A stretch of DNA of 64,000 bases. Source: a virus. Both the position numbers and the translations under genes were made by a program. How positions within the stretch are numbered: position 1 is the first letter of the stretch; each line of letters starts with the position of its first letter. Under the pieces are notes generated by a model. That model was not told where the DNA came from. It made no database searches and saw only the letters and a program-made list of their open reading frames with translations. The stretch is from IMG/VR virus record IMGVR_UViG_3300021400_000042. One strand, written 5' to 3'. Of the stretch, positions 7,379 to 34,012 are shown in pieces.

Positions 7379-7861
7379 ATGGCAGAAGAAAAGAAACAGG
7401 CAGCATTAAAGATTGTCATTGATGACGGCAGTCAGCGGATCCCGATTGAAAACATGAACGGGGATGAAATCGGTGTGTTCTATTTCCATCCTACGGATGT
7501 GGGTATCATCGAGCGCTACAACGAAACAATGTCCAAATTTGACGAGATCGTGGCTCCCCTGGAAGAGATCGATATCAACGCGGACGGTACGGCAGATGCA
7601 AATGACGAGGCGGCCGCCAAAGCCCTGAAAGAAGCAGAAAAGCGGCTTTATGAGGCCTGTGATTATATATTCGGCGGAAACATGTCCGAAGCATTTTTCG
7701 GGAAAATGCACCCGTTTTCCCCGGTGGGCGGACTCTTCTACTGTGAGAGTGCGCTGAATAAGGTTGGAGCCTTTATTTCAGAGCAGTTTGAACAGGAGAC
7801 TACGAAGATCAACAGCCGCCTGAAACAGTATGTAGGAAAGTACGGTAAGGGCAAAAAATGA
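7379..7861 (+). CDS. Tail assembly chaperone
   Basis: Position between the major tail and tape measure genes. Acidic 160-aa protein. Confidence 0.55.
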   Translation: MAEEKKQAALKIVIDDGSQRIPIENMNGDEIGVFYFHPTDVGIIERYNETMSKFDEIVAPLEEIDINADGTADANDEAAAKALKEAEKRLYEACDYIFGGNMSEAFFGKMHPFSPVGGLFYCESALNKVGAFISEQFEQETTKINSRLKQYVGKYGKGKK

Positions 7862-8418: not shown

Positions 8419-8434
8419 TGGGAGGTGAGAAAGC

Positions 8435-11400: not shown

Positions 11401-13315
11401 CCTGGCAAGTGTCGGTGAATGGATAAAGACAAACATCTTCGATCCGTTCATTACCGGGTTTAAGACCGCGTTTGGTATTGAATCACCTTCTACGGAGATG
11501 ATGCCGCTTGGCGGTTACATCATCGCAGGTATGCTGCAGGGTATTATCGACGGCCTTGTAAATATCGGGACCTGGATCAAAACAAATATCGTGGATCCGT
11601 TCGTATCCGGCGTGAAGAGTATGTTCGGTCTGGACGGTGAGGAGTCCGTTCTGGTAAGCGTCGGTAAAGACCTGATTGCCGGCCTGAAAGCCGGTATCGG
11701 GGCAGTCATGACCGGTATCAGCGATTGGATCAAAACTGTTATCGTGGATCCGTTTGTATCCGGTGTGAAAAGCATGTTCGGTCTGGATGGTGAAGAATCC
11801 GTGCTTGTCAGTGTTGGTAAAAACCTTCTGGAAGGTCTGAAGAACGGTCTGCTTGGAGCAATGGACGGTATCGGTGATTGGATCGGTACGAATATTACCG
11901 GCCCTATCTGCGGATTCTTTAAGGACCTGTTCGGAATTGCCAGCCCGTCAACTGTATTCTCTGAATACGGTGGTTTCCTGCTTGCCGGTCTGAAAAACGG
12001 TCTGCTTGCGGCAATGGATGGTATCGGTGATTGGATTAGCACAAACGTAACCGGCCCCATCTGCGGATTTTTCAAAGATTTGTTCGGTATTAACAGCCCG
12101 TCAACCGTGTTCAATGAATACGGCGGATACCTTATGCAAGGTCTGGAAGGCGGTATTGACGAGAATAAAGAGCTTCCGAAAACAGCTCTGTCAAATGCTC
12201 AGACTTCCATGGAAACGGTATTCAGCGCACAGAAACAACTGCTTGCATGGGCGCAGGTCGGTAGCAACGTGATGTCCCTCGGATTAAGAGCAGGTATCCT
12301 GCTGAAGACACCGGCTGTCCTGGCCACAATCACTAAGCTGGAAGACGATATGCGAAAGGTCATCACAAAACAGTTCAATACCTGGAAAACAGCGGCGGGA
12401 ACACTGCTTGACAATTTTAAGAACGGATTGACCGGGAAACAGGCAACACTGATAACAACAGTCAATACGATTATTACTGCACTGAAGACAAAAATTGATA
12501 GCTTCAAATCTCAGCTGAATAATTCCGGACGTGATCTGATGACGGATCTGCAGAATGGGATGAACAGCATGAGCGGCAGCATCTCTTCTTCAGCAAGTAA
12601 TATAGCAACCGGAATACATAACAGCTTCAATAACCAGAACTGGAATAATCTTGGGTACAACATCGGGATGGGTATTTATAACGGTCTGGTATCTTCCGGA
12701 AGCTGGCTGTCTACGCTTGCATGGAATACAGCTGTAAACATGTACAATTCGGCTTGTCGCGCCTTGGGGATTGCATCACCTTCCAAAGAATTTGCATGGA
12801 TTGGTGAAATGATTACCAGAGGTCTGGGCGGCGGAATTGAGGCTACACAGGACAATGCGGTGAGTGCGGTCACATCCCTGGCGGATGCCGTGACGCAGGA
12901 AGCAGAAGACAGCAATCCGATTATGCACATCGATACGGCCGTGAATGGGATAGACAGTGTGCTTTCCACATTCTCTGACAAGGTAGTACAGAGCTTTGAT
13001 GCGATGATCTCTGCAATGGAGAGTATTGTAAATGGCTCTTCTCTCACACTGCCTGCAATGGCAAACGGCTCTGTAATGCCGTATTCTGCCCGTAGGAGCG
13101 CTTCGCAGGATGAGGGGGATAAACTATCGTCCCTCATCGAAACACTGGCACAGCGGGACGCTGACAGGCTCACACGGGATGATCTGAGTGAAGTCCTTAT
13201 CAATGTACTCAGGCAGTATTTGAACATTGATTTTTACATCGGTGATGAACAAATTGCAAGACACGCGAACGCGGGAAACGCAAAACTGAATCGCCGGTAC
13301 AGTACAGCAACATAA
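8435..13315 (+). CDS. Tape measure protein (1626 aa)
   Basis: Very long ORF after the chaperones, with coiled-coil and Gly/Ala-rich repeats. Confidence 0.9.
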   Translation: MAGKSDGSITIDTKLDNSGFSRGSDELKHAVKSLTDQVNETGSKIQNAFKFDFGQPKQAVNSFSRAIKQVNDEIQSLGELGQRALEGDADALARFRSESGETLSKLEEMKAELEKFGSTEFMTPEYAKAADQYQKAATQVDELAKSLENAEAAFEQLTNDFGSSEEYTALEDRIDVLKMYQKEYEAAMKRGDSGAAAQAFMNSGVGKGTIADAVKEAEAEMQKLWDKFENSTPYRSAQKEIDKITAKLEQAKAQAEQYKAEMDATPATFEGYASTEYERDQAALERTIDRLLEYRQLVREGVGSDTAPSAEWQAVQERWQNMTTMSGLIRNAFTSLFSTITSGARTVGSALSTGITHPIQLVDRALGGVAVGAWKAVSSLGRLAGNAIVSGIQRIASAARQAAVHLAGMAKSAITNGLKKLGNAIANVGKKSKSTNVSLSGGFKTMLKYGLGIRSMFVLFNKLRNAIKEGFGALAEQDAAFGQTVNNFKAALTNLKMSFAAAFAPIAETVLPILTNLINTLATAISKIGQLVAALSGKTTYKRAITSQAAMADNTSNAADAMKDESKAAKEAQKTLAGFDDVEILHDNSSNLDQGQTAGNGGGGGFEELPIDSKFADLAKKLKDMWKNADFTELGRMLGQGLKDALDKIPWDYIKQVAAKLGKSIATLFNGFLEVPGLFTTIGKTIGEGINTIFEFLDAFASNFHWASLGQAIKDAILGMLNTIDWPLIYHTMATFGEGIGTALETALNNPEIWTAIFTAVSNGLNSIVYGIDAFLKAVNWGELGANIGTGLNAGVEAFDWSALSQTLIDLINGAFDLWYNFVTTFDFYKFGSHIGTALSDAVKGINWTEGGASVAQTINGLFEALNGFIQSTDWKALGAAVIDAIGGFFGEIDWGTMAETLSSAAIGLLDALTGAFQEVDWKALPGQITEAIKTFLTEFDWAGVATAAGELIGAAFTALIEVGGELWESMKSVGKNIMEGGFQGIIDALASVGEWIKTNIFDPFITGFKTAFGIESPSTEMMPLGGYIIAGMLQGIIDGLVNIGTWIKTNIVDPFVSGVKSMFGLDGEESVLVSVGKDLIAGLKAGIGAVMTGISDWIKTVIVDPFVSGVKSMFGLDGEESVLVSVGKNLLEGLKNGLLGAMDGIGDWIGTNITGPICGFFKDLFGIASPSTVFSEYGGFLLAGLKNGLLAAMDGIGDWISTNVTGPICGFFKDLFGINSPSTVFNEYGGYLMQGLEGGIDENKELPKTALSNAQTSMETVFSAQKQLLAWAQVGSNVMSLGLRAGILLKTPAVLATITKLEDDMRKVITKQFNTWKTAAGTLLDNFKNGLTGKQATLITTVNTIITALKTKIDSFKSQLNNSGRDLMTDLQNGMNSMSGSISSSASNIATGIHNSFNNQNWNNLGYNIGMGIYNGLVSSGSWLSTLAWNTAVNMYNSACRALGIASPSKEFAWIGEMITRGLGGGIEATQDNAVSAVTSLADAVTQEAEDSNPIMHIDTAVNGIDSVLSTFSDKVVQSFDAMISAMESIVNGSSLTLPAMANGSVMPYSARRSASQDEGDKLSSLIETLAQRDADRLTRDDLSEVLINVLRQYLNIDFYIGDEQIARHANAGNAKLNRRYSTAT
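11410..12150 (+). repeat. About five diverged ~50-aa tandem repeats inside the tape measure
   Basis: Repeated peptides W-I-K/G-T-N-I-x-D/G-P-F/I...FG(L/I)...(e.g. DPFVSGVKSMFGLDGEESVLVSVGK twice, GPICGFFKDLFGI.SPSTVF.EYGG twice). Confidence 0.8.
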
Positions 13316-13712: not shown

Positions 13713-15932
13713 GTGATAAATCTTTCAAGAGCTTTCCGGCAGGAGCTTTTTTACAACAGAAGAAATTATCTCACCTATGCGGATATTACTCTGTCAACCG
13801 GAAGAACATTGTCCCTGACCAATACACAGATATGGTCCGGTGGTTTTTCAACAGAGGATGCCGTATCGGAGGATAATTCTTTTACGGCCCTCGGTTCAAC
13901 AATCATGGGAGCGGCAACGCTGGTCATAAACAATATGACAGAGGCCTATTCCAATTATGATTTCACCAATGCAAAGGTTGTCCTTTATGTGGGTATGACC
14001 TTCAAAGTCAATGGATCCACCCGGACAGAGAAAATCAAAAAGGGAACCTATACCGTTGATGAAACGAGCTATAACGGTGGTACAATCACGCTCTCCCTGC
14101 TGGATTACATGGAGCAGTTTGACCGGCCGTACAGCAACAGTACATTGAGCTATCCTAATACTTTGGATGCCATTGTCAGGGATGCCTGTAATAAATGCGG
14201 TGTATCCCTGAATACCTATACTTTCCCGCATAGAGATTATGTGGTTCAAAATAGACCGGAGGATGAAGCAATCACCTTCCGGGAGGTCATCGGCTGGGCG
14301 GCCTGTATCGCCGGGTGCTTTGCCAGATGCAATGTTGATGGAAAACTGGAACTGAAATGGTTCGATCAGACTACACTGGAAAGCCGCACAAATGTCATTG
14401 ACGGTGGCAGGTCCTTCAGTTCTTCCGGAACGCTGATTGATGGCGGCGGGTTTGATACTGATTATGATGTTATCGACGGCGGCAATCTGGCAGACGATGA
14501 CGGGATGCATTATGTCCATTCTCTGTATTCTCAGGATATCAGTGTAGACGATGTGGTCATTACTGGGGTCCATATTACGGTTAAAGATGAGACAGAAGAA
14601 GGGAAGTCTTCTACAAAGGAATTCAATTCCGGGCGAAAGGGTTATGTAATTGGGATTGAAAACAATGATTTCATTACACCTGAAACCGGACAGGAGGTTG
14701 CGAACTGGTTAGGGGAGCAGCTGATTGGTCTGACCTTCCGGAAGGCTTCCGTTACACATGCCAGTGATCCTTCCATGGAGGCCGGTGATATCGGGATCCT
14801 GTGGGACAGGAAAGACAATGAATATCCTGTCCTGATTACCCGGACAAACTTCTCTGCTACTGCTTCACAGAAAACGGTAAGCGGGGCGGAAACGCCTTCA
14901 CGAAACAGTGCTACACGGTACGGGTGGCAGACAAAAAGCTATGTGGAGTCCAGGAAGCTGCTGAAGAAGGAACAGACTACCAGAGAAGCCATGCTGAAAG
15001 ATCTTGCCGATAAACTGGCAGCTCATTCCGGTCTGTATTCTACGGTTGAAACACAGTCGGACGGCAGCAGCATTTTCTACCTTCACGATATGCCTACTTT
15101 GAATGAGTCCGCGATTGTCTGGAAAATGACAAAAGAGGCCTGGGGCGTAACGACGAATTACAACAAGGGTAAAAATACAGTATGGAACGGCGGCATGACC
15201 GTTGACGGTGATACTATCGTTCGTATTCTTACAGCTGTCGGCGTGGACGCGGACTGGATCAATACCGGAAAGATACAGTCAAAAGACGGGTCTGTATCAA
15301 TCGATCTGGACAAGAACACGATCAACCTGAAGGGTATCACTTCCTTTGATGGGTTTGAGACAAAGGACAATCTGAAGACTGCCGGCAAAACCACGATCAA
15401 CGGCGCGAATATCACAACCGGGTCCATAAAGGACGCAAACAGTAACACGGTATTCAATCTGTCAACCGGTTCCCTGACAATGAAGAAAGGAAGCATTGAA
15501 CTGGGAACTCGATTTAAAGTAGACAGTAATGGTTATCTTACGGCTGAATCAGTTGACCTTAAAGGCCATTTTCGGAGTGTTTCAGGAAGTACCTTTACAG
15601 AAATATATAATGGTCAATTCCGCGCCGGTACTACCAATGGTAGCTACGATACTTTGCACGGTGTTATTGATGCAGATGCAAACTATAGCGGCGGAACACA
15701 TGCCGTTTCAGTAATTGCAAAAACGGGTTTTTTGGTCCTTGGAGGAAATGGGACAATCTGGTTTACAGATCAAACCGGATCCGGAAATGCATGGGGCTGG
15801 GCAAACAGTAATGGTCTGCATTCAAAAGGTGGATTAAGCGTAAGCAGTATTGCCATTCCTACCGCTTTTGATAGCGAAGGCAAAGCGGTAAGTTGGTATA
15901 CCGGATACATAGATGACGGCATTATCAAATAG
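13713..15932 (+). CDS. Tail tip / tail-associated protein (Tal or endopeptidase-tail-like)
   Basis: 739-aa ORF with a GTG start and AGGAGG RBS, in the baseplate position. Confidence 0.6.
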   Translation: MINLSRAFRQELFYNRRNYLTYADITLSTGRTLSLTNTQIWSGGFSTEDAVSEDNSFTALGSTIMGAATLVINNMTEAYSNYDFTNAKVVLYVGMTFKVNGSTRTEKIKKGTYTVDETSYNGGTITLSLLDYMEQFDRPYSNSTLSYPNTLDAIVRDACNKCGVSLNTYTFPHRDYVVQNRPEDEAITFREVIGWAACIAGCFARCNVDGKLELKWFDQTTLESRTNVIDGGRSFSSSGTLIDGGGFDTDYDVIDGGNLADDDGMHYVHSLYSQDISVDDVVITGVHITVKDETEEGKSSTKEFNSGRKGYVIGIENNDFITPETGQEVANWLGEQLIGLTFRKASVTHASDPSMEAGDIGILWDRKDNEYPVLITRTNFSATASQKTVSGAETPSRNSATRYGWQTKSYVESRKLLKKEQTTREAMLKDLADKLAAHSGLYSTVETQSDGSSIFYLHDMPTLNESAIVWKMTKEAWGVTTNYNKGKNTVWNGGMTVDGDTIVRILTAVGVDADWINTGKIQSKDGSVSIDLDKNTINLKGITSFDGFETKDNLKTAGKTTINGANITTGSIKDANSNTVFNLSTGSLTMKKGSIELGTRFKVDSNGYLTAESVDLKGHFRSVSGSTFTEIYNGQFRAGTTNGSYDTLHGVIDADANYSGGTHAVSVIAKTGFLVLGGNGTIWFTDQTGSGNAWGWANSNGLHSKGGLSVSSIAIPTAFDSEGKAVSWYTGYIDDGIIK

Positions 15933-17507: not shown

Positions 17508-20500
17508 ATGATTATTCATGAATTTGATCTGGACATGATACCTGGTGGTAACGTGCCGTCAATCAGGGTGAATCAGTATGATGAAGATTTCAACCTGAAG
17601 ATCAACCTGTTTTCCAGAAACGGGAATTTCTCTGTCCTCAGTGGCACAACCGCCCTGGTAAGAGGAACAAAGCCGGATGGAAATGCCTATTCTGCGGAAG
17701 CCTCCGTCAACGGGACCGTTGTTACCGTGACCGGAAATCAGCAGATCACAGCGGCAGCAGGCAGAGCGATCTTTGAAATTTCCCTCCGCAGGAACGGAAG
17801 AGAACTGAATACGGCAAACTTTGTCATTGATATTGAGCAGGCGGCCATGGATAAGGATACCGTTGCATCCACGTCCGTTGTCAGAGAGCTTGTCGATATT
17901 ATGGATAACTCTGAGGAAATCATCAATGCGGGTCAGCAGTATGAGAATTCTCAGAGGGCGATGGAGGAACTGACTGCGAGATCTGAAGCGGCTGCTGAAA
18001 CAGCAACCACGATGAAGACGCAGACGGAGGAAATCGCTACACAGACTGCTGAGAAATGGACAGAAGTCTCTGAACAGATGGACCGTAAATCTGCAGCTAT
18101 CGCTACTCTGGTATCCAATGCGGATCAAGTGGCGGCAGAGGCATCTGAAAAGGCCGGCAATGCTCTGAACGAGGCAGCGGAAGTATCCAACAGCCTTGAA
18201 GACATTCAGGGGAAAGTTACCGCTCTGGAACTGGGGCAGAACAACTATGTTGCGGATGGTTATGTGGAAGACGAAGAGGCCGTTTTTGTCGATAAGGACG
18301 GAAACGAGATGTTCCGTATTACGGGCATCGGCGGATCCGGCGGCGGTGGCGGAAGTTCTGACCAGACCGTGAAATCCCAGGTTACCATGGACAACATGAC
18401 TGGATGGCTTTCCAAAACGATTGCTGCAGGTGCGGAATGCCCGGTATCCTTTGTATGGTCCTCCACGATGGAAGGCATCCCGACCGGAAACGGCGTTGTC
18501 AGTGTGACTGTCAACAACGTGGTAAAGGCCACTATGGACGTTGCACAGGGAGCCGTAGAGATTGACCTGACTCCGTACATGACTGCAAGCGTGAACCGTG
18601 TCGAAGTTCGTGTAACAGATATTGAGGGTCAGTACAAGAGGATCAATTACAGTATCACGATCATGCAGCTATCTCTCAGCTCCACATTCGACGTGGCCAC
18701 ACCGTATACCGGTGCTATCCCGTTCCCGTACACTCCGATTGGTGCGGTACAGAAGACCGTGCATTTCATCCTGGATGGTACGGAAATCGGCACTCAGCAG
18801 ACCTCCGTAACCGGCAGACAGATGACCTATACGATCCCGGCACAGGCCCACGGCGGCCACTCTATCAGAGTTTACTTTGAGGCAGAGATCAATGGTGAGA
18901 CGGTGCGCTCCAATGAGCTGTACTATGAATTCACCTGCCTGGAAGCGATGAGCGATGAAGTCATCATCACGAGTCCGTACAATCAGGCTACACAGCCGCA
19001 GTATACGTCCATCGCTATTCCGTTCACGGTTTACGATCCGGTATCCCCGACGGCCGAAGTCAAAATCTATGCAAACGGTGAGCTGCTTTCTACTCAGACG
19101 GTTGACAGATCTGAACAGTCCTATACCTACAGGGCAACAGAGGCCGGTCCGCTGGTAATTGAGATCAAGAGCCATGAAACGACCAAAACCTTCAATATCG
19201 AGATCACCGAATCTGATGTCCATGCGGAAGCAGAGACGGAAAACCTTATGCTCTTCCTGTCTTCTCAGGGCAGAAGCAACAATGAGGAAAATCCGTGGAC
19301 ATGGGTTTCCAATGTTGGAGAGAACGATGTCAGTGCAGTTCTTTCCGGCTTCAATGGCGCGTCTGATGGATGGCAGACCGATGAGAGCGGTATTACCTGC
19401 CTGCGCGTGACCGGCGGTGCAAGAGTCCAGATCCCGTATCAGATTTTTGCTGCTGACGCGAGAAGAACAGGTCTTACCTTTGAGATCGAGTATGCAACCA
19501 GAAACGTGTCTGATTACAACGCGACGATCCTTTCCTGCATGAATGGCGGCAGAGGACTTGAAATCACTCCGCAGAGAGCAACACTGAAGTCTGAACAGAC
19601 CGAACTGTACATGCAGTACAAAGAGGGCGAACATATCCGCGTTGCCTATACCATCGGCAAGAGATCTGAAAACCGTCTGGTGAAGAGCTATATCGATGGT
19701 AAGATTGCGAGGGTTACACAGTATCCGGATGATGATGACTTTGCACAGGTAGCGCCCGTTGGAATTTCTATCGGTTCCGATAACTGCACAATCGATATCT
19801 ACTGCATCCGCGTATACACCAATGACCTTACCGCAAATCAGGTCATGGACAACTGGATTGCTGACACACAGGACGGATCCCTGATGCTTGAAAGATATGC
19901 GAGGAACCAGATTTTCGATGCATATGGTCAGGTAGTTCCGGGACAGCTGCCGTCCAACCTTCCTTACATGATTATCGAGTGCGAGGAGCTGCCGCAGTAC
20001 AAGGGCGATAAGAAGACAGTGAATGTATCCTATACGGATCCGCTGTATCCGAGTCATTCCTTCACGGCAGAGAAGGTACAGGCGAACGTCCAGGGTACAT
20101 CTTCCGCCCCGTATGCAGTGAAGAACCTTGACCTGCAGTTCAAGGGCGGCTTTGAGATGACCACAACCGGCCATTCCAAACTGTACAGACTGAGAGACGA
20201 TTCCATGCCGACGGCAAGGTTCGTTCTGAAGGCTGACGTGGCCTCTTCCGAGTCCGCAAACAATACGCAGCTGGTAAGACTGTACAATGACCTTTGCCCG
20301 TATAAGACTCCGGAAATGGAGGAAGATGAGAGAGTCCGTTGGGGTATCGATGGTATCCAGATTGTCATGTTCTGGCGTGACACGGTGACCGGAGATCTGC
20401 ACTTCAAGGGCAAATACAATTTCAACTTCCCGAAGAGGTTCCCGGAGGGGTACGGCTACACAGAGGATCAGGAGTCCTGGGAGTGGCAGAACAACACTTC

Positions 20501-23500
20501 CGACCGTATGCTTTTCAAGTCTGATGACTTTGACAGCATTTATACGGATCCGGAGACTCTGGAACAGTTCCCGGCATGGAAGAACGACTTTGAAGCACGT
20601 TTCCCGGAAGATACCTGGGAAGATATCGACAAACTGAAAGAGTGGATCAGCTGGGTAGTATCTACAGACCGCGATCAGGCTACAGGTGATGCTCTTGAAG
20701 CTCCTGTAACCTATGACGGAACTGAGTACACTGCCGATACTGCGGAATATCGTCTGGCGAAGTTCAAAGCAGAACTGGCGGATTATGCAGAGGTTGACAC
20801 TCTGATTTTCTACTATGTATGGACAGAATTCTTCCTGATGGTAGACTCCCGTGCAAAGAACCTGTTCATGGGCTTCCATGGCAGCCCGTGTGAGATCGAG
20901 GGTAGCGCGATTGATCGTAAGATCGTCGCAGAGCCTTACGATATGGATACCGGCCTGGGAACCAACAATGAAGGTACTCTGACATACACCTACAGTCTGG
21001 AAGATCTGGACACGATTGCCGGCGCGGATGTTTTCAACGGACAGCACTCTGTACTGTGGTGCAACCTGAGAGATACGCACAGAGCCGCAATCGTCAACAT
21101 GTATCAGACGCTCCGTTCCTCCGGCGGCCTTAACTACAAAGCAGTTGAGAAGCGCTATGAGGATGCACAGAATATCTGGCCGGAAGCAGTCTGGAATGAA
21201 GACGGAAGGATCAAATATACCGATCCTCTGACCAATCCGGAGACCGGTAAAGAACCGACGGCCTTCTATCTTCCCATGGCACAGGGATCAAAGGAGCAGC
21301 AGCGTAAATGGTGGCTGGGTAACCGTTTCGCGTACATGGACAGCAAATGGAATGCCGGTGATGCACTGGCACAGGTCATTCAGCTTCGTGGCTATGCAAA
21401 AGCGGATATCACGGTTACACCTTACATTGACCTGTATCCGACGGTCAAATATGGATCCTACCTGGTACAGCAGAGAGGTACGGCGGGGACACCTGCTACA
21501 CTGGCCTGCCCGATGGATTCTGTGAATGATACTGAGATCTATATTTACAGTGCGCCGCAGATTGCAAGCGTGGGCGATCTGTCCGGGCTGAAAGTCGGTG
21601 TCGCTGACTTCTCTCAGGCTACAAACATTCAGGAGGTCAAACTGGGTGATGCGGATCCGAGTTACGAAAACAACAACATGAAGCGTCTGAGCTTCGGCAG
21701 CAACGTTCTTCTGAAGAAGATCGATGTCCGGAACTGTGCGATGCTTGGAACCGACGAACAGAAGAGCGTGGACGTTTCCAACTGCGCTATTCTGGAAGAG
21801 GCTTACTTCGACGGCACAGCTATTCAGGGTCTTTCCCTTCCGAATGGCGGCGTGCTGAGAGTGCTGCACGTACCGGCTACAATGTCGAACCTGACGATCA
21901 GGAACCAGAAGAACCTTGCAGAGTTTGTTATCCCGTCCTACAGCAATATCTCGACGTTGTGGCTGGAAAACAACAGCGCCGTGATTGATACTCTGGATAT
22001 TGTGAAGAAGGTTCCGGCAAATGCCCGTATCCATCTGGTAGGGGTAGCGTGGGAAGCGGCTGACGCGGCAGAGATCAGAACCGTCCTGGATCTTCTTGAT
22101 ACAATGAGAGGTCTGGATGACTACGGCAACAACCAGGATCAGGCGTATGTTTCCGGATCCATCCACACAAGCAGCCTGACCGGTGCTGAAGTGGCGGAGT
22201 TTGAAGGCAGATACCCGTATCTGAAGATCCTTGCTGACCACACAACGTCTTACCGCACCTATGCGGATTATGACGGTACAGAGCTGAAGAAGGTTGCTTG
22301 CATCGACGGCGTACCGCAGGAGAGCGCACCGGCCAATCCGTCTAGGGCGCAGACAGCTCAGTACAGCTATTCCTTCGTGGGATGGTCTAAGAGCATGAAC
22401 GCTGAGACAGCGGACTCTGATGCACTGGATAACGTGATTGCTGACAGGACGATCTATGCGGCCTACAGCAAGACCGTGAGGGAATACACCGTAACATGGA
22501 AGAATGCGGATGGAACCACTCTCAGAACGGATACGCTGAAATATGGCGCAACACCGTCCTGGGGACAGGCTATGCCGACCAATTCCAGCGGCCAGACGGC
22601 ACAGGGATGGACACCGACGATCAGCACGGTCACCGGTAACGCAACCTATACCGCGTCCTACATTCCGGTATACAACGTATACTTCTACAACGGTACGACG
22701 CTGCTGAAGGAACAGCAGGTACAGCAGGGTGGAAATGCTACACCGCCGAGTGAAACACCTGTGAGCGCGGACGGTCCGGATTATGAATTCACCGGATGGC
22801 TGCCGGGGTACACGAACATTCAGGGTAACACTTCCTGCTATGCACAGTTCAAAGCTCCGAGTGCTGTGAAGGAAATCACGGATGACTGGGCAACCATTGT
22901 CTCAAAGATTGCGAACGGCACGGCAAATTACCAGGTAGGTAACTACAAGCCTCTGGACCTTGGTACAGAGGGCGTTGTCAATATGCAGATCGTTGGTAAG
23001 AATACCAGTCCTCTTGCATCCGGCAGCGGAACAGCTACTTATGACTGGCTGAGTATGGAACTGCTTGCAACTGACCATAGAATGAACCCGTCCAACAACA
23101 ATAACGCTGAAGGAACCGGGTCTATCGGTGGTTGGGAGAAGTGTGAAATGAGGAAGTACCTCAAAGAGACCATTAAGCCGCTCATACCTGAGACGGTTAG
23201 AAATGCAATCAAAGAGGTTACGAAGTATTCGCGTATCTTTGATACAAGCGGAACTGCAGTCAACGATGTGGCATCGACAGAAGATGTCTGGATCCCGTCC
23301 AAACGTGAAATGTTTGGTGCAATCAGTAATGCAGAGACGATGGGACCGATCTATGACGGAATCTTCACGGATAATGCAAGCCGTGTGAAGAAGAAAGTAG
23401 GCGCGTCCAGCGCCTCGTTCTGGTGGTGCCGGTCCGCTGGTACCAACCATGGCTTCAGTGGTGTGAACAGCAGCGGCGGCAATAGCTATAACGGCGCGAG

Positions 23501-23537
23501 CAACTCCTACCCGCTGGCCCTGGGCTTCTCAATTTAA
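17508..23537 (+). CDS. Giant modular tail fibre / receptor-binding protein (2009 aa), DGR target 1
   Basis: Contains a BppU_N-like N-terminus, a coiled coil, an LRR-like block (KLGDADPSYENNNMKRLSFGSNVLLKKIDVRNC...) and Listeria-Bacteroides-type repeats (YSFVGWS..., YEFTGWL...). The C-terminal domain ends in VR1. Confidence 0.85.
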   Translation: MIIHEFDLDMIPGGNVPSIRVNQYDEDFNLKINLFSRNGNFSVLSGTTALVRGTKPDGNAYSAEASVNGTVVTVTGNQQITAAAGRAIFEISLRRNGRELNTANFVIDIEQAAMDKDTVASTSVVRELVDIMDNSEEIINAGQQYENSQRAMEELTARSEAAAETATTMKTQTEEIATQTAEKWTEVSEQMDRKSAAIATLVSNADQVAAEASEKAGNALNEAAEVSNSLEDIQGKVTALELGQNNYVADGYVEDEEAVFVDKDGNEMFRITGIGGSGGGGGSSDQTVKSQVTMDNMTGWLSKTIAAGAECPVSFVWSSTMEGIPTGNGVVSVTVNNVVKATMDVAQGAVEIDLTPYMTASVNRVEVRVTDIEGQYKRINYSITIMQLSLSSTFDVATPYTGAIPFPYTPIGAVQKTVHFILDGTEIGTQQTSVTGRQMTYTIPAQAHGGHSIRVYFEAEINGETVRSNELYYEFTCLEAMSDEVIITSPYNQATQPQYTSIAIPFTVYDPVSPTAEVKIYANGELLSTQTVDRSEQSYTYRATEAGPLVIEIKSHETTKTFNIEITESDVHAEAETENLMLFLSSQGRSNNEENPWTWVSNVGENDVSAVLSGFNGASDGWQTDESGITCLRVTGGARVQIPYQIFAADARRTGLTFEIEYATRNVSDYNATILSCMNGGRGLEITPQRATLKSEQTELYMQYKEGEHIRVAYTIGKRSENRLVKSYIDGKIARVTQYPDDDDFAQVAPVGISIGSDNCTIDIYCIRVYTNDLTANQVMDNWIADTQDGSLMLERYARNQIFDAYGQVVPGQLPSNLPYMIIECEELPQYKGDKKTVNVSYTDPLYPSHSFTAEKVQANVQGTSSAPYAVKNLDLQFKGGFEMTTTGHSKLYRLRDDSMPTARFVLKADVASSESANNTQLVRLYNDLCPYKTPEMEEDERVRWGIDGIQIVMFWRDTVTGDLHFKGKYNFNFPKRFPEGYGYTEDQESWEWQNNTSDRMLFKSDDFDSIYTDPETLEQFPAWKNDFEARFPEDTWEDIDKLKEWISWVVSTDRDQATGDALEAPVTYDGTEYTADTAEYRLAKFKAELADYAEVDTLIFYYVWTEFFLMVDSRAKNLFMGFHGSPCEIEGSAIDRKIVAEPYDMDTGLGTNNEGTLTYTYSLEDLDTIAGADVFNGQHSVLWCNLRDTHRAAIVNMYQTLRSSGGLNYKAVEKRYEDAQNIWPEAVWNEDGRIKYTDPLTNPETGKEPTAFYLPMAQGSKEQQRKWWLGNRFAYMDSKWNAGDALAQVIQLRGYAKADITVTPYIDLYPTVKYGSYLVQQRGTAGTPATLACPMDSVNDTEIYIYSAPQIASVGDLSGLKVGVADFSQATNIQEVKLGDADPSYENNNMKRLSFGSNVLLKKIDVRNCAMLGTDEQKSVDVSNCAILEEAYFDGTAIQGLSLPNGGVLRVLHVPATMSNLTIRNQKNLAEFVIPSYSNISTLWLENNSAVIDTLDIVKKVPANARIHLVGVAWEAADAAEIRTVLDLLDTMRGLDDYGNNQDQAYVSGSIHTSSLTGAEVAEFEGRYPYLKILADHTTSYRTYADYDGTELKKVACIDGVPQESAPANPSRAQTAQYSYSFVGWSKSMNAETADSDALDNVIADRTIYAAYSKTVREYTVTWKNADGTTLRTDTLKYGATPSWGQAMPTNSSGQTAQGWTPTISTVTGNATYTASYIPVYNVYFYNGTTLLKEQQVQQGGNATPPSETPVSADGPDYEFTGWLPGYTNIQGNTSCYAQFKAPSAVKEITDDWATIVSKIANGTANYQVGNYKPLDLGTEGVVNMQIVGKNTSPLASGSGTATYDWLSMELLATDHRMNPSNNNNAEGTGSIGGWEKCEMRKYLKETIKPLIPETVRNAIKEVTKYSRIFDTSGTAVNDVASTEDVWIPSKREMFGAISNAETMGPIYDGIFTDNASRVKKKVGASSASFWWCRSAGTNHGFSGVNSSGGNSYNGASNSYPLALGFSI
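23404..23531 (+). repeat. DGR variable region VR1
   Basis: 128 nt, collinear with TR 24132-24259. Has 14 mismatches in the body, all at TR adenines in AAC/AAT codons. Confidence 0.95.
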
Positions 23538-23549
23538 GCCCGTATCCAT

Positions 23550-23576
23550 GATCTGGCCCGCTTGTCGGGCCAGATC
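23550..23576 (+). promoter_or_regulatory. GC hairpin downstream of VR1 (retrohoming-associated)
   Basis: GATCTGGCCCG-CTTGT-CGGGCCAGATC, an 11-bp stem, 18 nt after VR1. Confidence 0.7.
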
Positions 23577-23603
23577 CCCCGGCTTGCAAGGAACCCACCT
23601 TTT

Positions 23604-23630
23604 CCGCCGCGTAAGCGGCGGCGAATTTTT
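23604..23630 (+). terminator. Rho-independent terminator after the tail fibre gene
   Basis: CCGCCGC-GTAA-GCGGCGG followed by CGAATTTTT. Confidence 0.65.
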
Positions 23631-23645
23631 GGGGATTTTTTAGGG

Positions 23646-23674
23646 TAGACGAACGGCGTAAGCTGAAGTATAAT
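23646..23674 (+). promoter_or_regulatory. Candidate promoter of the avd-TR-RT unit
   Basis: TAGACG, 17 nt, TATAAT. Confidence 0.45.
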
Positions 23675-23699
23675 GACGTGCTGAAAGTAGGTGAAAGCA

Positions 23700-24104
23700 A
23701 TGTCGGTCATCCGTAGTAAACGCGCGGAGTCCGAAATGGAGTTTATCCATACTGCCCGACAGCTTCAGGTCTATACGATTCAGAAGTGTGTCGGATTTCC
23801 CAAACGGTACACATTTTACATCGCCCAACCGATTGCAAATGCAGCTACACGGGTGCATGAGCTGACGAAGATGGCGAATAGTGTCTATCCCACCAATTCC
23901 CATGAAGTCCAGCTTCGGCGGGACTATCTCCTCAGAGCAAATGCAGAATTGAACAGCCTTGTCTCACAGATCGAAGTCGCTCATGAGCTATTCGGTCTTG
24001 AACCCAATGTCATGAAATTCTGGATGGATCTGGTGGATAAGGAGATCCGTTTGGTAAAGGGAACTCTGAAAAAGGACAAAGAGCGTTACAAGAATATCAC
24101 ATAA
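23700..24104 (+). CDS. avd: DGR accessory variability determinant (Avd, four-helix bundle)
   Basis: About 134-aa basic helical protein between the target gene and TR. The ATG at 23700 has an AGGTG RBS. Same position as bAvd in BPP-1-type DGRs. Confidence 0.8.
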   Translation: MSVIRSKRAESEMEFIHTARQLQVYTIQKCVGFPKRYTFYIAQPIANAATRVHELTKMANSVYPTNSHEVQLRRDYLLRANAELNSLVSQIEVAHELFGLEPNVMKFWMDLVDKEIRLVKGTLKKDKERYKNIT

Positions 24105-24131
24105 GTTTATTTTGGGTTTTGTTCTAAACAT

Positions 24132-24259
24132 CGTCCAGCGCCTCGTTCTGGTGGTGCCGGTCCGCTAATAACAACAATAACTTCAATGGTGTGAACAGCA
24201 GCGGCAACAATAACAATAACAACGCGAACAACTCCTACCCGCTGGCCCTGGGATCCTCA
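24132..24259 (+). repeat. DGR template repeat (TR)
   Basis: Non-coding, with a run of AAC/AAT triplets. Matches VR1 over 128 nt and VR2 over 108 nt. The 3' end GGATCCTCA differs from both VRs (GGCTTCTCA), consistent with an IMH* versus IMH distinction. Confidence 0.95.
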
Positions 24260-24485
24260 TCTGTGAGACAAAGTAACCCATGAGGGCGAAATCAGTGCAA
24301 GAGGATGAGAAGGAGAATAGAACCCTCCATGCGGAAGCATGGTAAATAATGCCCTTGATAGGTCTGGGCGGACGCTGCTTGCATGGCGGTGCTTGATGGT
24401 GATGCACCGTTTCATGCCCACTGACCTTACGCGGCTATATGTAACCATCCGGCAGCCGTACAGGGGCAATTTTAAAAAAGGACTG

Positions 24486-25640
24486 ATGACAATGACCAGT
24501 GAAGAACGTCGGGAGGGACGGTATCAGAGAAGGATTGCAAAGCGCATGGCGAAGAGAAATCAGAGCCGTGCTTTTTGTGATGACTTCAACACCGTATTCT
24601 CTTATGAAAATCTTTACCGGTCATATAAGAAATGCCGCAGGAATGTGGCGTGGAAAGCATCCGTCCAGAAATACATCACGCAAGCGCCTTTGATGGTCAA
24701 TCAGACATACGAAAAGCTGCAGGCGGGGAAATTCAAGTCCAGCGGCTTTTATGAGTTTGATATCAATGAGCGTGGGAAGATCCGGCATATTAAGTCGGTG
24801 ACTATAACAGAAAGAGTGGTACAGCGCTGTCTGTGCGATAATGCGCTTGTACCCATGCTGAGTCCTACTTTCATCTATGATAATGGTGCTTCACTGGAAA
24901 ACCGTGGATATCATTTCTCCATACGGCGGATGGTGAGACACCTGCAGGAGCATTACCGGAAACATGGTACAGAAGGTTATGTCCTGCTTTTTGATTTTTC
25001 CAAATTCTTTGATAATGTCTCTCATGAACTGTGCAAGCAAATCATGAGAGAACAGTTCACCGATGAAAGGGTCATAGGTATCACAGATCATTTCATTGAC
25101 ATGTTCGGTGATGTCGGCCTGGGACTTGGAAGTCAGATCAGTCAGACATTCGCTCTGGCCTCTGCAAATCGTCTCGATCATTATGTGAAAGAGGTACTGC
25201 GGATCAGAGGCTATGGACGGTATATGGATGACGGGTATCTGATTCACGAGAGTAAGGAATACCTGCAGCACTGCCTGACGGAAATCCGGCGGGTATGTAG
25301 GGAACTTGGGATCACGATCAATGAGAAGAAAACGCAGATTGTGAAGATATCCCATGGTTTTACCTTCCTGAAAGCTCGTTTTTACCTCACTGAAACCGGA
25401 AAAGTTGTCCGGAAAATATATAAAAAGTCCATCGTCCGGGAGCGGCGCAAGCTGAAAAAGTTTGTGCCTCTTCTGGAAAACGGGGTCATGAGCTACACGG
25501 ACGTTGCGACGGCCTTTCAGTCGTGGTGTGCGTATGCAAAGAACTTCAGCGCATGGCATACGATACAGAATATGTGTCGATTGTATAATCAACTATTCAT
25601 TTATCCCTGGATAATACAGGGAGGGACACAAGGTTGCTGA
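24486..25640 (+). CDS. DGR reverse transcriptase
   Basis: Contains RYMDDGYL (YMDD box) and LGLGSQISQ (the DGR-type [LIV]GxxxSQ motif). The start is set at ATG 24486 or 24492. The longer ORF from 24339 would cover the TR-RT spacer. Confidence 0.9.
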   Translation: MTMTSEERREGRYQRRIAKRMAKRNQSRAFCDDFNTVFSYENLYRSYKKCRRNVAWKASVQKYITQAPLMVNQTYEKLQAGKFKSSGFYEFDINERGKIRHIKSVTITERVVQRCLCDNALVPMLSPTFIYDNGASLENRGYHFSIRRMVRHLQEHYRKHGTEGYVLLFDFSKFFDNVSHELCKQIMREQFTDERVIGITDHFIDMFGDVGLGLGSQISQTFALASANRLDHYVKEVLRIRGYGRYMDDGYLIHESKEYLQHCLTEIRRVCRELGITINEKKTQIVKISHGFTFLKARFYLTETGKVVRKIYKKSIVRERRKLKKFVPLLENGVMSYTDVATAFQSWCAYAKNFSAWHTIQNMCRLYNQLFIYPWIIQGGTQGC

Positions 25641-25642
25641 AA

Positions 25643-25670
25643 GCATCTTCCAGACGGGAGGTGCTTTTTT
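25643..25670 (+). terminator. Rho-independent terminator after RT
   Basis: GCATCTTCC-AGAC-GGGAGGTGC (two G-U pairs) followed by TTTTTT. Confidence 0.6.
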
Positions 25671-25699
25671 AATGCCCAAAAGAAAGGAGATTCAGCAAG

Positions 25700-26677: not shown

Positions 26678-26799
26678 GACACGCGCTCATTATCGGAGCC
26701 GTCCTGCTATGCGGGGCGGCTCTTACTTTTGGCGGCATGGTAATACATGAACTTGGACGATTTATCAACGATGTAAGGGGAGATAACGAATATGAATAA
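26674..26799 (+). CDS. Possible small membrane peptide (41 aa, GTG start)
   Basis: Bridges the holin stop and the endolysin start. One TM segment ([21 protein letters not shown]). Below the ORF-track cutoff. Confidence 0.3.
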
Positions 26800-28588
26800 A
26801 GAAAATATGGCCGTCCTGACAAATGTTATCGGCGCGGTAGAGTCTGGCGGTCAGATCTACGGGAAGCGCGACTATTCCGCGTATGCGGCCCCGTACACGA
26901 ACAGCAATGTGGAGCATACAATCACCCTGGGATGGGCGCAGAACTACGGATCTGAAGCCCACAAGCTGATTCAGATGATTTATGATGCGGATCCGGCAGC
27001 CTTCAAAAAGATTGATGGGAACGGCAGCATAAAGAAAGCGTTGGCGAAGGACTGGGTAGCTACACGGTGGAATCCGAGTGCTGCACAGAAGAAGACACTG
27101 ATTGCCCTGATTTCTTCCGACGCAGGAAAGAAGTGCCAGGACGAACTGTTTGCACAGCTTATGGATACCTTCATCGCGGAGTGCGAGAAGAAATATACCA
27201 AAGATATCAAGGCGGTCATGATGTATTGTCAGATCCGGCATCTGGGTGGCGGTGGTCCTGTAAAGAGGATCTTTGACCGGTTGGGAGGAGACTACAGCCT
27301 GGACGCGATCATGGCATCTCTGAAGAAGGATCAGAACGATACATCCAATGATAATCAGGTCGGGGACGCGAAGTTCTGGACCAGACATCAGAAGTGTAAG
27401 CAGTTCATTGAGAAGTATGCGGTAGTGGATAAAGTGGATAAAGTAGATGAAAGTGAGGATAAGACAATGGGAGTAACAGCTGAACAGGTCATTGCGGTAT
27501 ATAGGAGCTGGATCGGGCTGTCCCGTGCGGCCGGCACACACTCTGTTATCCTGGACACATATAACAAGTACATTCGGAACCATCCGGGAGCAGGCCGTAA
27601 CTATCAGGTTCAGAGAAGTGACGCATACTGCGATACTACGTTCTCTGCAGCATTCGTGAAGCTGAATGCGGTTGACCTGATCGGTGGCGTGGAATGCGGT
27701 GTGGAAGAACATGTGAAGATCTTCAAGGCTGCCGGTATCTGGGAAGAGGACGGCAGTATTACGCCTAAACCCGGTTACGGCATCATCTATAACTGGGATG
27801 ATGCGACGCAGCCGAATGACGGCTACAGTGACCATATCGGCATCGTAGAGAAGGTTTCCGGCGGGTACATTACCTGCATTGAAGGAAACATGAACGGCGG
27901 TGTTGTCGGCCGCAGGACAATTCCGGTTGGCTGGGGGTATATCCGCGGTTTCGCAAAACCGAAATATGCGACATCCTCCGGTAAGACCGAAGAGAAGCAG
28001 GAGCAGACTGCTACACAGCAGCAGGCGGGTGGCGGAACGACACTCAGCAAAGCAAAGAAGTGGAACGGCATTGTCGTGGATAAGACCGGCGCAAATGTAC
28101 GGACCTGGCCGGGAACGGAGAACCATCAGGTTTCCTTCAGTCCTCTGAAATACGGAACCGTGGTAGATGTCTGCGATACCATCAAAGCGGCGGATCAGAC
28201 AGACTGGTATTACATCCGGTATAATGGTCGGTATGGTTTTGTCAGTGCTGCCCTCATCCAGCGGAAGGAAACGGCGGCAGCAGCCCCGTTCACACCGAAG
28301 GAACAGGCCACAAAAAAGACGGCCACCTATGGCGCGTCTATCGGTCCTGACAAGTCTGTGGCCGGAACCTATAAGGTCACAGCTGACAGCCTGAATATCC
28401 GGAACCGTGCCGGTGTGGACACGGCTAAAGGGTGTACGATCCTGGGAGCAATTCCGGAGGGGACCAAAGTCCAGAACTACGGTTTCTATTCCATGGTCGG
28501 CGGTGTGAAGTGGCTTTACATTCAGGTCACCTATGACGGTGTGACCTATACCGGTCATTGTTCCGGCGAATATCTGAAGAAGGTTTGA
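26792..28588 (+). CDS. Endolysin (CHAP/NlpC-P60-like amidase plus two SH3b domains)
   Basis: Cys in SDAYCDTTFSAAF and His in YSDHIGIVEKV. Two C-terminal SH3-like repeats (NVRTWPG...WYYIRYNGRYGFV and LNIRNRAG...WLYIQVTYDG). Confidence 0.8.
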   Translation: MNKENMAVLTNVIGAVESGGQIYGKRDYSAYAAPYTNSNVEHTITLGWAQNYGSEAHKLIQMIYDADPAAFKKIDGNGSIKKALAKDWVATRWNPSAAQKKTLIALISSDAGKKCQDELFAQLMDTFIAECEKKYTKDIKAVMMYCQIRHLGGGGPVKRIFDRLGGDYSLDAIMASLKKDQNDTSNDNQVGDAKFWTRHQKCKQFIEKYAVVDKVDKVDESEDKTMGVTAEQVIAVYRSWIGLSRAAGTHSVILDTYNKYIRNHPGAGRNYQVQRSDAYCDTTFSAAFVKLNAVDLIGGVECGVEEHVKIFKAAGIWEEDGSITPKPGYGIIYNWDDATQPNDGYSDHIGIVEKVSGGYITCIEGNMNGGVVGRRTIPVGWGYIRGFAKPKYATSSGKTEEKQEQTATQQQAGGGTTLSKAKKWNGIVVDKTGANVRTWPGTENHQVSFSPLKYGTVVDVCDTIKAADQTDWYYIRYNGRYGFVSAALIQRKETAAAAPFTPKEQATKKTATYGASIGPDKSVAGTYKVTADSLNIRNRAGVDTAKGCTILGAIPEGTKVQNYGFYSMVGGVKWLYIQVTYDGVTYTGHCSGEYLKKV

Positions 28589-28594
28589 TCGGGT

Positions 28595-28634
28595 TGCCCT
28601 GGTGAGGATTGAGGTCCTTGCCGGGGCATTTTTT
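28595..28634 (+). terminator. Terminator after the lysis genes
   Basis: TGCCCTGG...CCGGGGCA stem followed by TTTTTT. Confidence 0.55.
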
Positions 28635-28636
28635 AT

Positions 28637-28892
28637 ATTACAAACGCCTGTAATATTCTGTAATATTGCGTAATTTTGTAATTTGGAATTCGGGAATCTC
28701 ATTACAAAATTACGGAGTATTACAAAATCTGTAATCCGTGAAAGCCGCATAGAATAAGGCTTTATCTGCATTTATTACAATATTACAAACATTTCTAATA
28801 GACCTATTGAAATAGAGAAAATAGAGAGTACATGTCCCGCCTGTCCCGCCTAATGCGAACACGTCTATACGCGCGTGCGAGAAACGTAATTA
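28637..28892 (+). repeat. Iteron-rich element, copy A (homologous to 53121-53363)
   Basis: Shares GTAATATTGCGTAATTTTGTAAT, TTACAAAATTAC, CTGTCCCGCCTAAT and AACACGTCTATA with copy B. GTAAT occurs at 28650, 28660, 28670 and 28678. Confidence 0.85.
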
Positions 28893-28910
28893 ACTCCCCT
28901 GATAAACGAC

Positions 28911-32410: not shown

Positions 32411-34012
32411 TTACAGCAGGCCTTCAATGGCGAACACATCCAGGTGCATGTACCAGATCAGGCGGAGTGGTTCGCCTGTTGGTCGCTCAGGTACGGGTGA
32501 GCGACTACAGTCGAACACTTCAGAAGTGCCGTCTGTAGTCGCTTTTTCTATGTCTTCAACCTTGACTGTATTCCCGTCTCCGCTGAAATTCAGCGTAATC
32601 AGGAAGTGATCGTCATACAGGAAGATGGCGTTGACAAAAGTATCGATCAGTCGCTTTTTAGCATCCAGATTATCCGTGTCCATATCACGCATGGTTTCCA
32701 GGAAGAATTCAATGCGCTCTTTGGTCAGCTTTATTCCCTTTGCAAGCTCTCGGTCAGCGAGGGCCTTTTTTAATGCCGCTTTTTGCCCGTTCAGTTCATC
32801 CAGGCGCGTCTGTATCAGATCGAAGGGCATTCCGCTCTCAACCGATTTCACGAGGTTTGCAATTCCCTTTTCTACGCCGGCAAGTTCCGTCTGCATTGCC
32901 TGTATTTCTGTCTGTTCTGTATCTTGCTTCAGGTAGAATTCCCAAGTCTTATCTACGATCAGCTGGAAGATCTCTGGATTGTGAAGAATCTCATGGATCT
33001 TTTCAAGGACCAGAGGTTCTATATAGTCTTGCCGGACGTTCTGCTTATCACAGCCTTTACCGTTATGCCGGTTCCAGCAGCCATAATAGCAGTGCTTATC
33101 TCCGGTTCTGCTGGTTCCGCTTTTTCCTACCATCGAGGATCCGCATTTTCCGCAGAACAGTTTTCCTGTCAGCAGATAATCAGAGTATGACCATTTATGC
33201 GATGGCATTCTTTTATTGATCTTCAGCATATCCTGTACCTTCCGGAACGTGTCCTTATCTACGAGGGCCGGAACCGCGTCTTCATCCCGGATTATGTCCT
33301 TGTAGATGTATGTGCCGATGTATAACTCGTTATGCAGCATCCTTTTCAGACTGCTGCGGTTAAAAGCTACACCGCGTTGTGTGCGATGTCCCTGCTCATT
33401 CAGATACCGGATGATTTCAAATTCTGTGCTGCCGGCAGCATACATCTCAAAGATTTTCTTTGCAATCGGACCGGTTACAGGATCGATCTCATATGTCTTA
33501 TCTGCGGCAGCCCGGTATCCGAATGCGATTGCACGGCCGCCGGGGACGTGATGCTTCTTTGCGGCTTCCAGCAGGCCGCGTCTTACGTTCTGGGACAGCT
33601 GCAGGCTGTAATATTCAGCCATGCCTTCCAGGACGCTTTCCAGGATCACGCCTTCCGGTCCGTCTACTACATTCTCAGCTACGTATTCGACGCGGACACC
33701 GTGCTTTTTCGCCTTGTATTTGTTGAACGTGATTTCTTCCCGGTTACGTCCGAACCGGTCAACCTTCCAGACGATGATGACACTGAACTGATGTTTTGCA
33801 CAGTCGTGTAACATCTGCTGGAAGGCCTCTCTGTTGTCGTTTGTGCCGGTTTTAGCTCTGTCACAGTATTCCCGGATGATAGTGTATCCCTTTTTCTCCG
33901 CGTATTTCTGTGCAGCGGCAAGCTGACCTTCAATGGAGGTCTCATGCTGTTTTGCTGATGAGAACCGGGCATATACGACAGCCATTTCTCCATCTGTCTT
34001 CTTACCAGTCAT
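32411..34012 (-). CDS. Large serine recombinase (integrase)
   Basis: N-terminal resolvase motif VVYARFSS..Q. 533 aa with a Cys cluster (CGKCG...CYYGC) and a coiled-coil tail. Confidence 0.85.
   Translation of the reverse strand: MTGKKTDGEMAVVYARFSSAKQHETSIEGQLAAAQKYAEKKGYTIIREYCDRAKTGTNDNREAFQQMLHDCAKHQFSVIIVWKVDRFGRNREEITFNKYKAKKHGVRVEYVAENVVDGPEGVILESVLEGMAEYYSLQLSQNVRRGLLEAAKKHHVPGGRAIAFGYRAAADKTYEIDPVTGPIAKKIFEMYAAGSTEFEIIRYLNEQGHRTQRGVAFNRSSLKRMLHNELYIGTYIYKDIIRDEDAVPALVDKDTFRKVQDMLKINKRMPSHKWSYSDYLLTGKLFCGKCGSSMVGKSGTSRTGDKHCYYGCWNRHNGKGCDKQNVRQDYIEPLVLEKIHEILHNPEIFQLIVDKTWEFYLKQDTEQTEIQAMQTELAGVEKGIANLVKSVESGMPFDLIQTRLDELNGQKAALKKALADRELAKGIKLTKERIEFFLETMRDMDTDNLDAKKRLIDTFVNAIFLYDDHFLITLNFSGDGNTVKVEDIEKATTDGTSEVFDCSRSPVPERPTGEPLRLIWYMHLDVFAIEGLL

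Follow-up and report, generated by a model that had tools for sequence, protein, structure and literature searches.

The 64,000-nucleotide (nt) stretch of viral DNA analysed here (IMG/VR record IMGVR_UViG_3300021400_000042, hereafter the window) carries a diversity-generating retroelement (DGR), and it is instructive to begin with the described systems that it most resembles. The closest characterised relative is the DGR of Roseburia phage Shimadzu (LR596903), whose parts follow one another in the same order as here: a variable repeat (VR1, 18935-19063) at the 3' end of an annotated tail-fibre gene (orf22), an Avd gene (orf23), a template repeat (TR, 19582-19710), an RT-2 RNA (145 bits) and a gene for a reverse transcriptase (RT; orf24). 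A second variable repeat (VR2, 33483-33593) ends a hypothetical protein of 209 amino acids (aa; orf43) whose gene neighbours DNA methyltransferase genes in the module for DNA metabolism, and two Shimadzu proteins have been reported as diversified, as PMC11792537 notes. The Shimadzu RT and Avd are 49% and 26% identical to those of the window, respectively, and its small target is weakly similar to the one here (26% over 70 aa). Both systems have GC-rich hairpins after both VRs, and in both the initiation of mutagenic homing site (IMH) of the VRs, with G-C-T, contrasts with its counterpart in the TR (IMH*), with G-A-T. That said, the genome of Shimadzu is of myovirus type, 45 kb long, and encodes a sheath and a fibre of 431 aa, whereas here the genome is about 64.5 kb and the target 2009 aa long; VR2 lies 13.9 kb from the TR there and 21.6 kb here; and there is no nucleotide-level similarity between the two, their TR and VR sequences being unrelated.

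With the prototype of these elements, BPP-1 (mtd-avd-TR-brt), the window shares the gene order, the mutagenesis of adenines in AAY codons, a VR at the C-terminus of a (here putative) tail receptor-binding protein, the IMH/IMH* pair with a GC-rich inverted repeat 3' of the IMH, and a 5' boundary that varies (PMC5758913). What is more, the BPP-1 RT is the best match to ours in the PDB, and the folds of the two Avd proteins match. On the other hand, the target of BPP-1 is Mtd and its spacer RNA is RT-10, whereas here the targets carry DUF6273 and the spacer RNA is RT-2 (PMC5737381); there are two targets here, one of them non-adjacent; and the Avd has diverged too far to reach the NCBIfam Avd cut-off. 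Wu et al. (PMC5758913) report non-adjacent targets in one and the same prophage as a common feature, and pairs of one large and one small DUF6273 target have been described in the Faecalibacterium phages Lelie and CP11 (PMC11792537). Together with the "tentaclin" phages nd4 and nd12 (PMC10743442), these resemble the window in having one TR that serves two DUF6273 targets of very different sizes, a VR at the C-terminal end of DUF6273, and a small target that is a single globular domain. In nd4 and nd12, however, both targets lie inside the cassette and one VR is N-terminal, following the tentaclin topology of a C-lec domain and then Ig domains, whereas here both VRs are C-terminal, tentaclin Ig repeats are absent and the small target is 21.6 kb away. 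The RT is only 31-38% identical to those of the nd4, nd12, Lelie and CP11 group.

Set against these systems, the window leaves us with little doubt that it holds a functional and active DGR in a temperate gut phage, which presumably acts on two targets by canonical mutagenic retrohoming. An earlier note on this DNA had described a complete DGR of the order VR-avd-TR-RT, with BPP-1-type architecture, at the end of the 2009-aa gene, and all of these parts are indeed present (Table 1). VR2, the hairpins that follow the VRs, the structured spacer RNA and the evidence from natural populations are new relative to that note.

Table 1. Features of the DGR, its two targets and the surrounding phage genes; coordinates are those of the window.
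Feature	Coordinates	Strand	Description
Major head protein	4027-5097		
Tape measure	8435-13315		1626 aa
Tail protein	13713-15932		
Target gene 1	17508-23537	+	2009-aa distal tail protein, putative tail fibre/receptor-binding protein
VR1	23404-23531	+	mutable body ~23439-23510; IMH ~23511-23531 (CCGCTGGCCCTGGGCTTCTCA)
GC-rich hairpin after VR1	23550-23576	+	11-bp stem GATCTGGCCCG/CGGGCCAGATC, 5-nt loop; z = -4.5
Terminator-like hairpin and T-run	23604-23631	+	ends target-1 transcript; sequence kept in relatives
Promoter-like site	23646-23674	+	TAGACG-17-TATAAT upstream of avd; 10/12 matches
avd	23700-24104	+	ATG at 23700; 134 aa; basic, pI 9.5; predicted all-helical
TR	24132-24259	+	15 AAY codons; IMH* 24239-24259 (…GGGATCCTCA)
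RT-2 RNA (Rfam RF03077)	24259-24488	+	146.4 bits (threshold 40); model positions 1-222 of 222
DGR RT	24486-25640	+	384 aa (382 aa from 24492); LGSQISQ at residue 214, YMDD at residue 246
Terminator-like hairpin and T-run after RT	25647-25671	+	hairpin 25647-25661; consensus scan
Serine recombinase	32411-34012	-	Resolvase, Recombinase and Zn_ribbon_recom domains
Target gene 2	45320-45925	+	201-aa stand-alone DUF6273 protein; VR2 forms its last codons
VR2	45804-45919	+	remote, 21.6 kb from TR; unbroken TR identity from 45812
GC-rich hairpin after VR2	45935-45955	+	stem CGCGCCCG/CGGGCGCG

The relation between TR and VR1 is as the earlier note had read it. The two are collinear over 128 nt without a gap, and their first 35 nt are identical. 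In the body there are 14 substitutions (11 A>G, 2 A>C and 1 A>T; for instance aat>ggt, aac>acc and aac>ggc), every one of them at a TR adenine and at the first or second codon position of AAT or AAC in the frame of the 17508-23537 open reading frame (ORF). Two more differences lie at the 3' end, where GGATCCTCA of the TR corresponds to GGCTTCTCA of VR1: A>C at 24253 and C>T at 24255, which set the IMH* apart from the IMH. In total there are 16 mismatches, falling on 15 of 36 adenine sites and on 1 of 92 non-adenine sites (Fisher p = 5.6e-9), and VR1 ends 6 nt upstream of the stop codon of the 2009-aa ORF. A search for repeats over the whole window gave a third copy (VR2, 45792-45919), which from 45812 on departs from the TR in the body at TR adenines only (12 positions) and whose IMH is exactly that of VR1. 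For this pair mismatches occur at 13 of 35 adenine sites versus 1 of 73 others (p = 8e-7), and across the TR/VR comparisons the adenine bias gives Fisher p values from 8e-7 to 1e-11. With its 15 AAY codons the TR can give 15^15, or approximately 4e17, protein variants per target, none of them with a stop codon.

In both targets the VR encodes the C-terminal end of a DUF6273 domain: residues 1871-1998 of the 2009-aa protein score 37.0 bits and the 201-aa protein 41.1 bits with the Pfam model (cut-off 23.5 bits). The small target is paralogous to the C-terminus of the large one (32% identity over 198 aa, E = 1e-30), and its gene is flanked by one for a DNA cytosine methyltransferase (43948-45306) on one side and by NrdH-like and NrdD genes on the other. 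When searched with Foldseek against BFVD, the DUF6273 domain matches DUF6273, tail-collar fibre and receptor-binding proteins (1e-6 to 1e-3), and its assignment as C-type-lectin-like is taken from PMC10743442. The gene of the large target sits downstream of those for the tape measure and a tail protein. That this protein is a tail fibre, as claimed earlier, is suggested by its position, by a weak match to a tail-fibre PHROG (1.2e-5) and by the annotation of the Shimadzu gene in the same position, and is best kept as a putative assignment. By analogy with BPP-1, the diversified DUF6273 surface would serve in receptor binding.

Related sequences were found with a TR pattern in which every adenine was masked (in IMG/VR and JGI) and by exact look-up of the Avd protein (in ENA metagenomes); contigs and loci compared with the window carry L-numbers below. 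The masked pattern led to one related population in IMG/VR and JGI, the JGI metagenome scan returning solely the three contigs already known from IMG/VR, and the Avd look-up gave ten additional contigs from independent ENA metagenomes. The same pattern had no match in 185,579 GTDB genomes, and megablast of the cassette and of window positions 1-25000 had none among deposited phage genomes. In the IMG/VR-JGI population the flanks are 88-97% identical to the window (3-12% diverged) and the TR is identical at 128 of 128 positions, while both VRs depart from those of the window at adenine sites only. Of the 11 related contigs in which the TR is present (L003 and L007-L016), 9 have it unchanged, among them 8 of the 10 from ENA. 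VR1, in contrast, differs in 11 of 12 genomes from public assemblies, almost only at TR-adenine positions, as one would expect from the variable target and invariant template that had been proposed; when run on public assemblies, the tests that could have refuted the earlier note all spoke for it. It is different in every contig except for the near-clonal pair L014 and L015.

Comparisons of nearly identical genomes show recent diversification at both targets. Namely, the window and L007 have 15 differences in 20,405 nt, every one inside VR1. L008 and L009 differ at 24 positions within the 128-nt VR1 and at 2 in the 7976 nt outside it, and for L010 and L013, which have the same BioSample accession label, 20 of 25 differences over 18,000 nt are in VR1. 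At the remote target, the VR2s of the window and L024 have 17 differences inside and 4 outside in 5031 nt, and L023 and L026 have 22 inside and 8 outside. When 18 distinct VRs are pooled, 264 of 594 adenine-site cells (44%) differ from the TR, compared with 8 of 954 others (0.84%). The commonest replacements of the AAY codons are Tyr, Ser, Gly, Thr and Asp, and Tyr, Ser, Gly and Asp are likewise common replacements of Asn codons in PMC10743442. What is more, in the TR of L010 and L013 the nucleotide that corresponds to 24235, which is not an adenine, has changed from C to T, and the same change is found in their cognate VR1: it is a natural marker transferred from TR to VR. How far identity to the TR extends towards the 5' end of VR2 varies among strains, in three classes, in keeping with the report of Wu et al. 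(PMC5758913) that conversion tracts of DGRs have a 5' boundary that is imprecise and depends on homology.

The VR1s of L014 and L015 are identical despite an apparent divergence of 2.1% between the two contigs. This divergence is not the puzzle that it seems to be, as it consists of two local clusters only, one an alignment offset at the start of the locus and the other at approximately 6500-7000 of the locus. The second cluster is near a boundary at approximately 6667-6680 between two ORFs, of 930 and 1056 aa, as which the target-1 gene of L014 (ERZ914863, locus ~3888-9837) is called; the split could reflect a frameshift, an indel or an assembly error. Separately, the VR2s of L018, L019, L020 and L022 (locus ~3800-3936), in which the NrdH-like gene is identical, have 6-10 non-adenine differences from the TR of the window, such as …GCCTCGACTGCCGGCGCGCTGGCC. 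They would thus be served by a diverged TR lineage, with TR and VR co-evolving as a unit across strains.

Which features distinguish the VRs from their template? Both VRs carry GGGCTTCTCA as the IMH where the TR carries GGGATCCTCA as the IMH*, and in the whole 64 kb there are exactly three IMH-type sites, with 0 expected by chance. Relatives keep the contrast of G-C-T in the IMH with G-A-T in the IMH* (G-T-T in L033). A GC-rich inverted repeat 3' of the IMH occurs in about a third of DGRs, and here a perfect hairpin lies 15-18 nt 3' of each VR and none after the TR; the VR1 and VR2 hairpins have the core GCCCGCTTGTCGGGC in common. The VR1 hairpin is kept in L027 and L029 with compensatory changes in the stem, and in all relatives a hairpin follows the VR and not the TR, though the stem sequences differ. 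By analogy with BPP-1, the IMH and the hairpin, a candidate cruciform element, would take part in target recognition.

The predicted RT has, as had been reported, YMDD and the DGR-type LGSQISQ motif, which aligns with IGSLTSQ of the BPP-1 RT (bRT) and follows the pattern (I/L/V)GxxxSQ. It matches Pfam RVT_1 (3.6e-18) and PHROG 1423 (1.5e-87), and its best solved relative is bRT (8ub7, 1.5e-17), group II intron maturases reaching 7e-10 at best. Adenine-biased TR/VR pairs adjoin RT relatives with as little as 37% identity: such a pair lies upstream of the RT in 12 of 16 loci (37-85% identity). The spacer between TR and RT is filled by the RT-2 RNA, which occupies the same place in L027-L031 and in Shimadzu. 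Since this RNA extends to 24488, and since gene callers begin the RT of the sister contigs at the counterpart of 24492, the most likely start of the RT is 24486 or 24492; an in-frame ATG further upstream, at 24339, was ruled out as the start, as that stretch is RT-2 RNA. In Weinberg et al. (PMC5737381) only RT-10 is tied to a DGR, that of BPP-1, and it is speculated that other RT motifs serve other DGRs, a speculation that the placement of RT-2 in the spacer here fits. A search of the literature for RT-2 together with DGRs found nothing, and its placement thus appears to be unstated in the searchable literature. By analogy, RT-2 would be the counterpart, in this lineage, of the spacer RNA of BPP-1, on which cDNA synthesis is scaffolded and, from Sp A56, primed.

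The Avd-like protein that the earlier note had placed between target and TR matches PHROG 3206 ("Avd protein of DGR", 3.7e-12), and its AlphaFold2 model, built with 37 homologues, is a four-helix bundle with a predicted local distance difference test score (pLDDT) of 78. With Foldseek the model matches 2gsc and 2rld, which are bundles of the Avd/"S23 ribosomal protein" family, and 8ub7_B and 4dwl, which are BPP-1 Avd (TM 0.63-0.76); over the four, TM is 0.63-0.80 and the probability 0.95-1.0, with E-values of only 0.04-1.4. Among the PDB searches it was this comparison of folds alone that tied the protein to BPP-1 Avd. An avd-like ORF lies between VR and TR in every relative with a TR/VR pair, and together these matches point to an Avd, which may well act as it does in BPP-1. 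The unit had also been credited with a candidate promoter and a terminator of its own. Both sites were recovered by a scan, and the -10 box of the promoter-like site is kept in L027 and L029 while the -35 box is not; both stand as candidates, the promoter with the reservation that follows from the count given below.

Put together, these parts would work as follows. The unit of avd, TR, spacer and RT would be transcribed, and the RT and Avd, probably in a complex with the structured RT-2 RNA, would reverse-transcribe the TR and misincorporate opposite template adenines. The resulting adenine-mutagenised cDNA would replace the homologous VR at two loci, each with the same IMH and a downstream hairpin, while the TR, having an IMH* and no hairpin, would be spared from being overwritten. 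In this way the 15 AAY codons would recode the C-type-lectin-like DUF6273 surface in the C-terminus of the 2009-aa protein and in its 201-aa paralogue, which presumably retunes the binding of ligands or receptors.

Could the cassette be a fossil, in other words, a DGR that diversified its VRs in the past and is now inactive, so that the differences between TR and VR are historical? A single genome cannot separate past from present activity, and the window on its own would leave room for this reading. However, genomes that are otherwise identical over 20.4 kb differ solely in VR1, pairs with 2-8 flank differences in 5-8 kb have 17-24 in the VR, and every part of the element, from RT and avd to TR, spacer RNA, IMH and hairpins, is conserved and intact. 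We therefore consider a fossil very improbable. Even less credence can be given to the proposal that the RT is of another class, such as a retron, a group II intron or a defence-associated DRT or Abi enzyme, and that the repeats are unrelated duplications. The RT does score 87.7 bits with the NCBIfam group II RT/maturase model, approximately 40 with Drt3a and retron models, and 61 with the PADLOC Drt9 model, but these scores are far under the curated cut-offs (300, 200 and 235 bits). Moreover, the best solved relative is a DGR enzyme and the LGSQISQ motif is present, intron RNA domains and maturase or endonuclease extensions are absent, and relatives of the RT are consistently flanked by adenine-biased TR/VR pairs.

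It is also well known in general that the tips of phage tail fibres are often hypervariable and mosaic, and ordinary diversifying selection, or recombination among receptor-binding alleles, might in principle make a VR hypervariable with no reverse transcription at all. Such processes would have to account for variation that is limited to the adenines of a nearby non-coding template (44% versus 0.8% of cells), for non-adenine positions of the VR that are better conserved than the flanking gene (0/92 versus a background of 6.6% in diverged strains), for a point mutation of the TR that is mirrored in the VR, and for the same pattern in two unlinked genes 21.6 kb apart. The chance that they do so is, in our view, negligible, and we thus return to a DGR that is active at both targets.

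That said, several observations weigh against this picture. The VR variants are all consensus sequences of public metagenome assemblies. The NCBIfam equivalog model for Avd (NF033474) gives 19.5 bits (E = 8.9e-4), below its cut-off of 80 bits, and neither phmmer with the Avd sequence nor a profile of 11 Avd sequences reached BPP-1 Avd in the PDB. The region has 3 promoter-like sites, with 3.1 expected in shuffled sequence, a number that is not above chance. The model of the small target has a pLDDT of 71 overall and below 50 across the VR, and Foldseek found no significant match for it in the PDB. Finally, two adenines of the TR, 24197 and 24200 (23469 and 23472 in VR1), are constant in the 18 distinct VRs, whereas all AAY adenines vary. 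These two are the first positions of adjacent AGC (Ser) codons, and their invariance likely reflects purifying selection on scaffold serines.

As for the genome around the DGR, the window is that of an uncultivated gut phage, with sister contigs of approximately 64.5 kb. In addition to the genes in Table 1, it encodes a holin, an endolysin, DNA polymerase A, ThyX, a methyltransferase and NrdD. A large serine recombinase identifies the phage as temperate, and one sister copy (L021) is part of a 186-kb contig (ERZ4903486) and may be a prophage in its integrated form, which could reveal the host. The host is probably a member of the Lachnospiraceae or Eubacterium; the GTDB relatives of the RT come from metagenome-assembled genomes labelled Eubacterium or Lachnospiraceae (73-85% identity) and from other Clostridia.

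Some further features of the window are worth recording. Two intergenic regions of approximately 250 nt, one after the endolysin gene (28600-28900) and one after an 822-aa ORF (53085-53385), are 83% identical although 24.5 kb apart, and both are dense in TTACAA(A)/TGTAAT half-sites; they look like duplicated regulatory regions, with operator or iteron arrays, that head two transcription units. A tRNA cluster (38824-40100 and 63236-63319) has four Rfam tRNA matches, two of them unusually long (38824-38965, 142 nt; 39281-39376, 96 nt), where ARAGORN gives tRNA-Leu(aag) and tRNA-Tyr(gta) only, and four T-arm-like repeats (GGTTCAAnTCC) are spread over 38938-40097. The cluster may comprise intron-containing or degenerate tRNA genes. 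In the head module, an Rfam GP20-a cis-regulatory RNA (3221-3319, 57.9 bits) lies directly upstream of the ORF at 3324-3995, and the tape-measure gene contains tandem 153-nt (51-codon) repeats, 76-80% identical, at 11573-12129. Two long ORFs on the minus strand, one of 803 aa (18669-21080) opposite the tail-fibre gene and one of 668 aa (26765-28771) opposite the endolysin gene, are probably non-coding by-products of codon composition.

What does this locus add to the biology of DGRs? Knowledge of how these elements work is left unchanged: the system is of a well-known type and well evidenced, tidy rather than surprising. It does offer a very clean case of DGR activity in nature, in which clonal genomes differ solely at template-adenine positions in two unlinked genes and a natural marker of the TR has been copied. 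It also ties RT-2, an orphan motif of Rfam, to the TR-RT spacer of this DGR lineage. What is more, the Shimadzu-type layout of a giant tail target and a small remote DUF6273 target by methyltransferase genes recurs on unrelated phage backbones of gut Clostridia, and this bears on the question of why such a phage should also diversify a second, small protein encoded outside its structural module. One answer, which we consider unlikely though worth stating, is that the 201-aa protein is no receptor-binding protein of the virion, being instead a DGR-diversified binder that acts inside the cell or is released, for example one directed at a variable component of host defence or of the host surface. 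The idea draws on the fact that both here and in Shimadzu the gene is kept in the early DNA-metabolism module, beside methyltransferase genes. If it were true, a single template of the DGR would drive the co-evolution of two interfaces with different functions.

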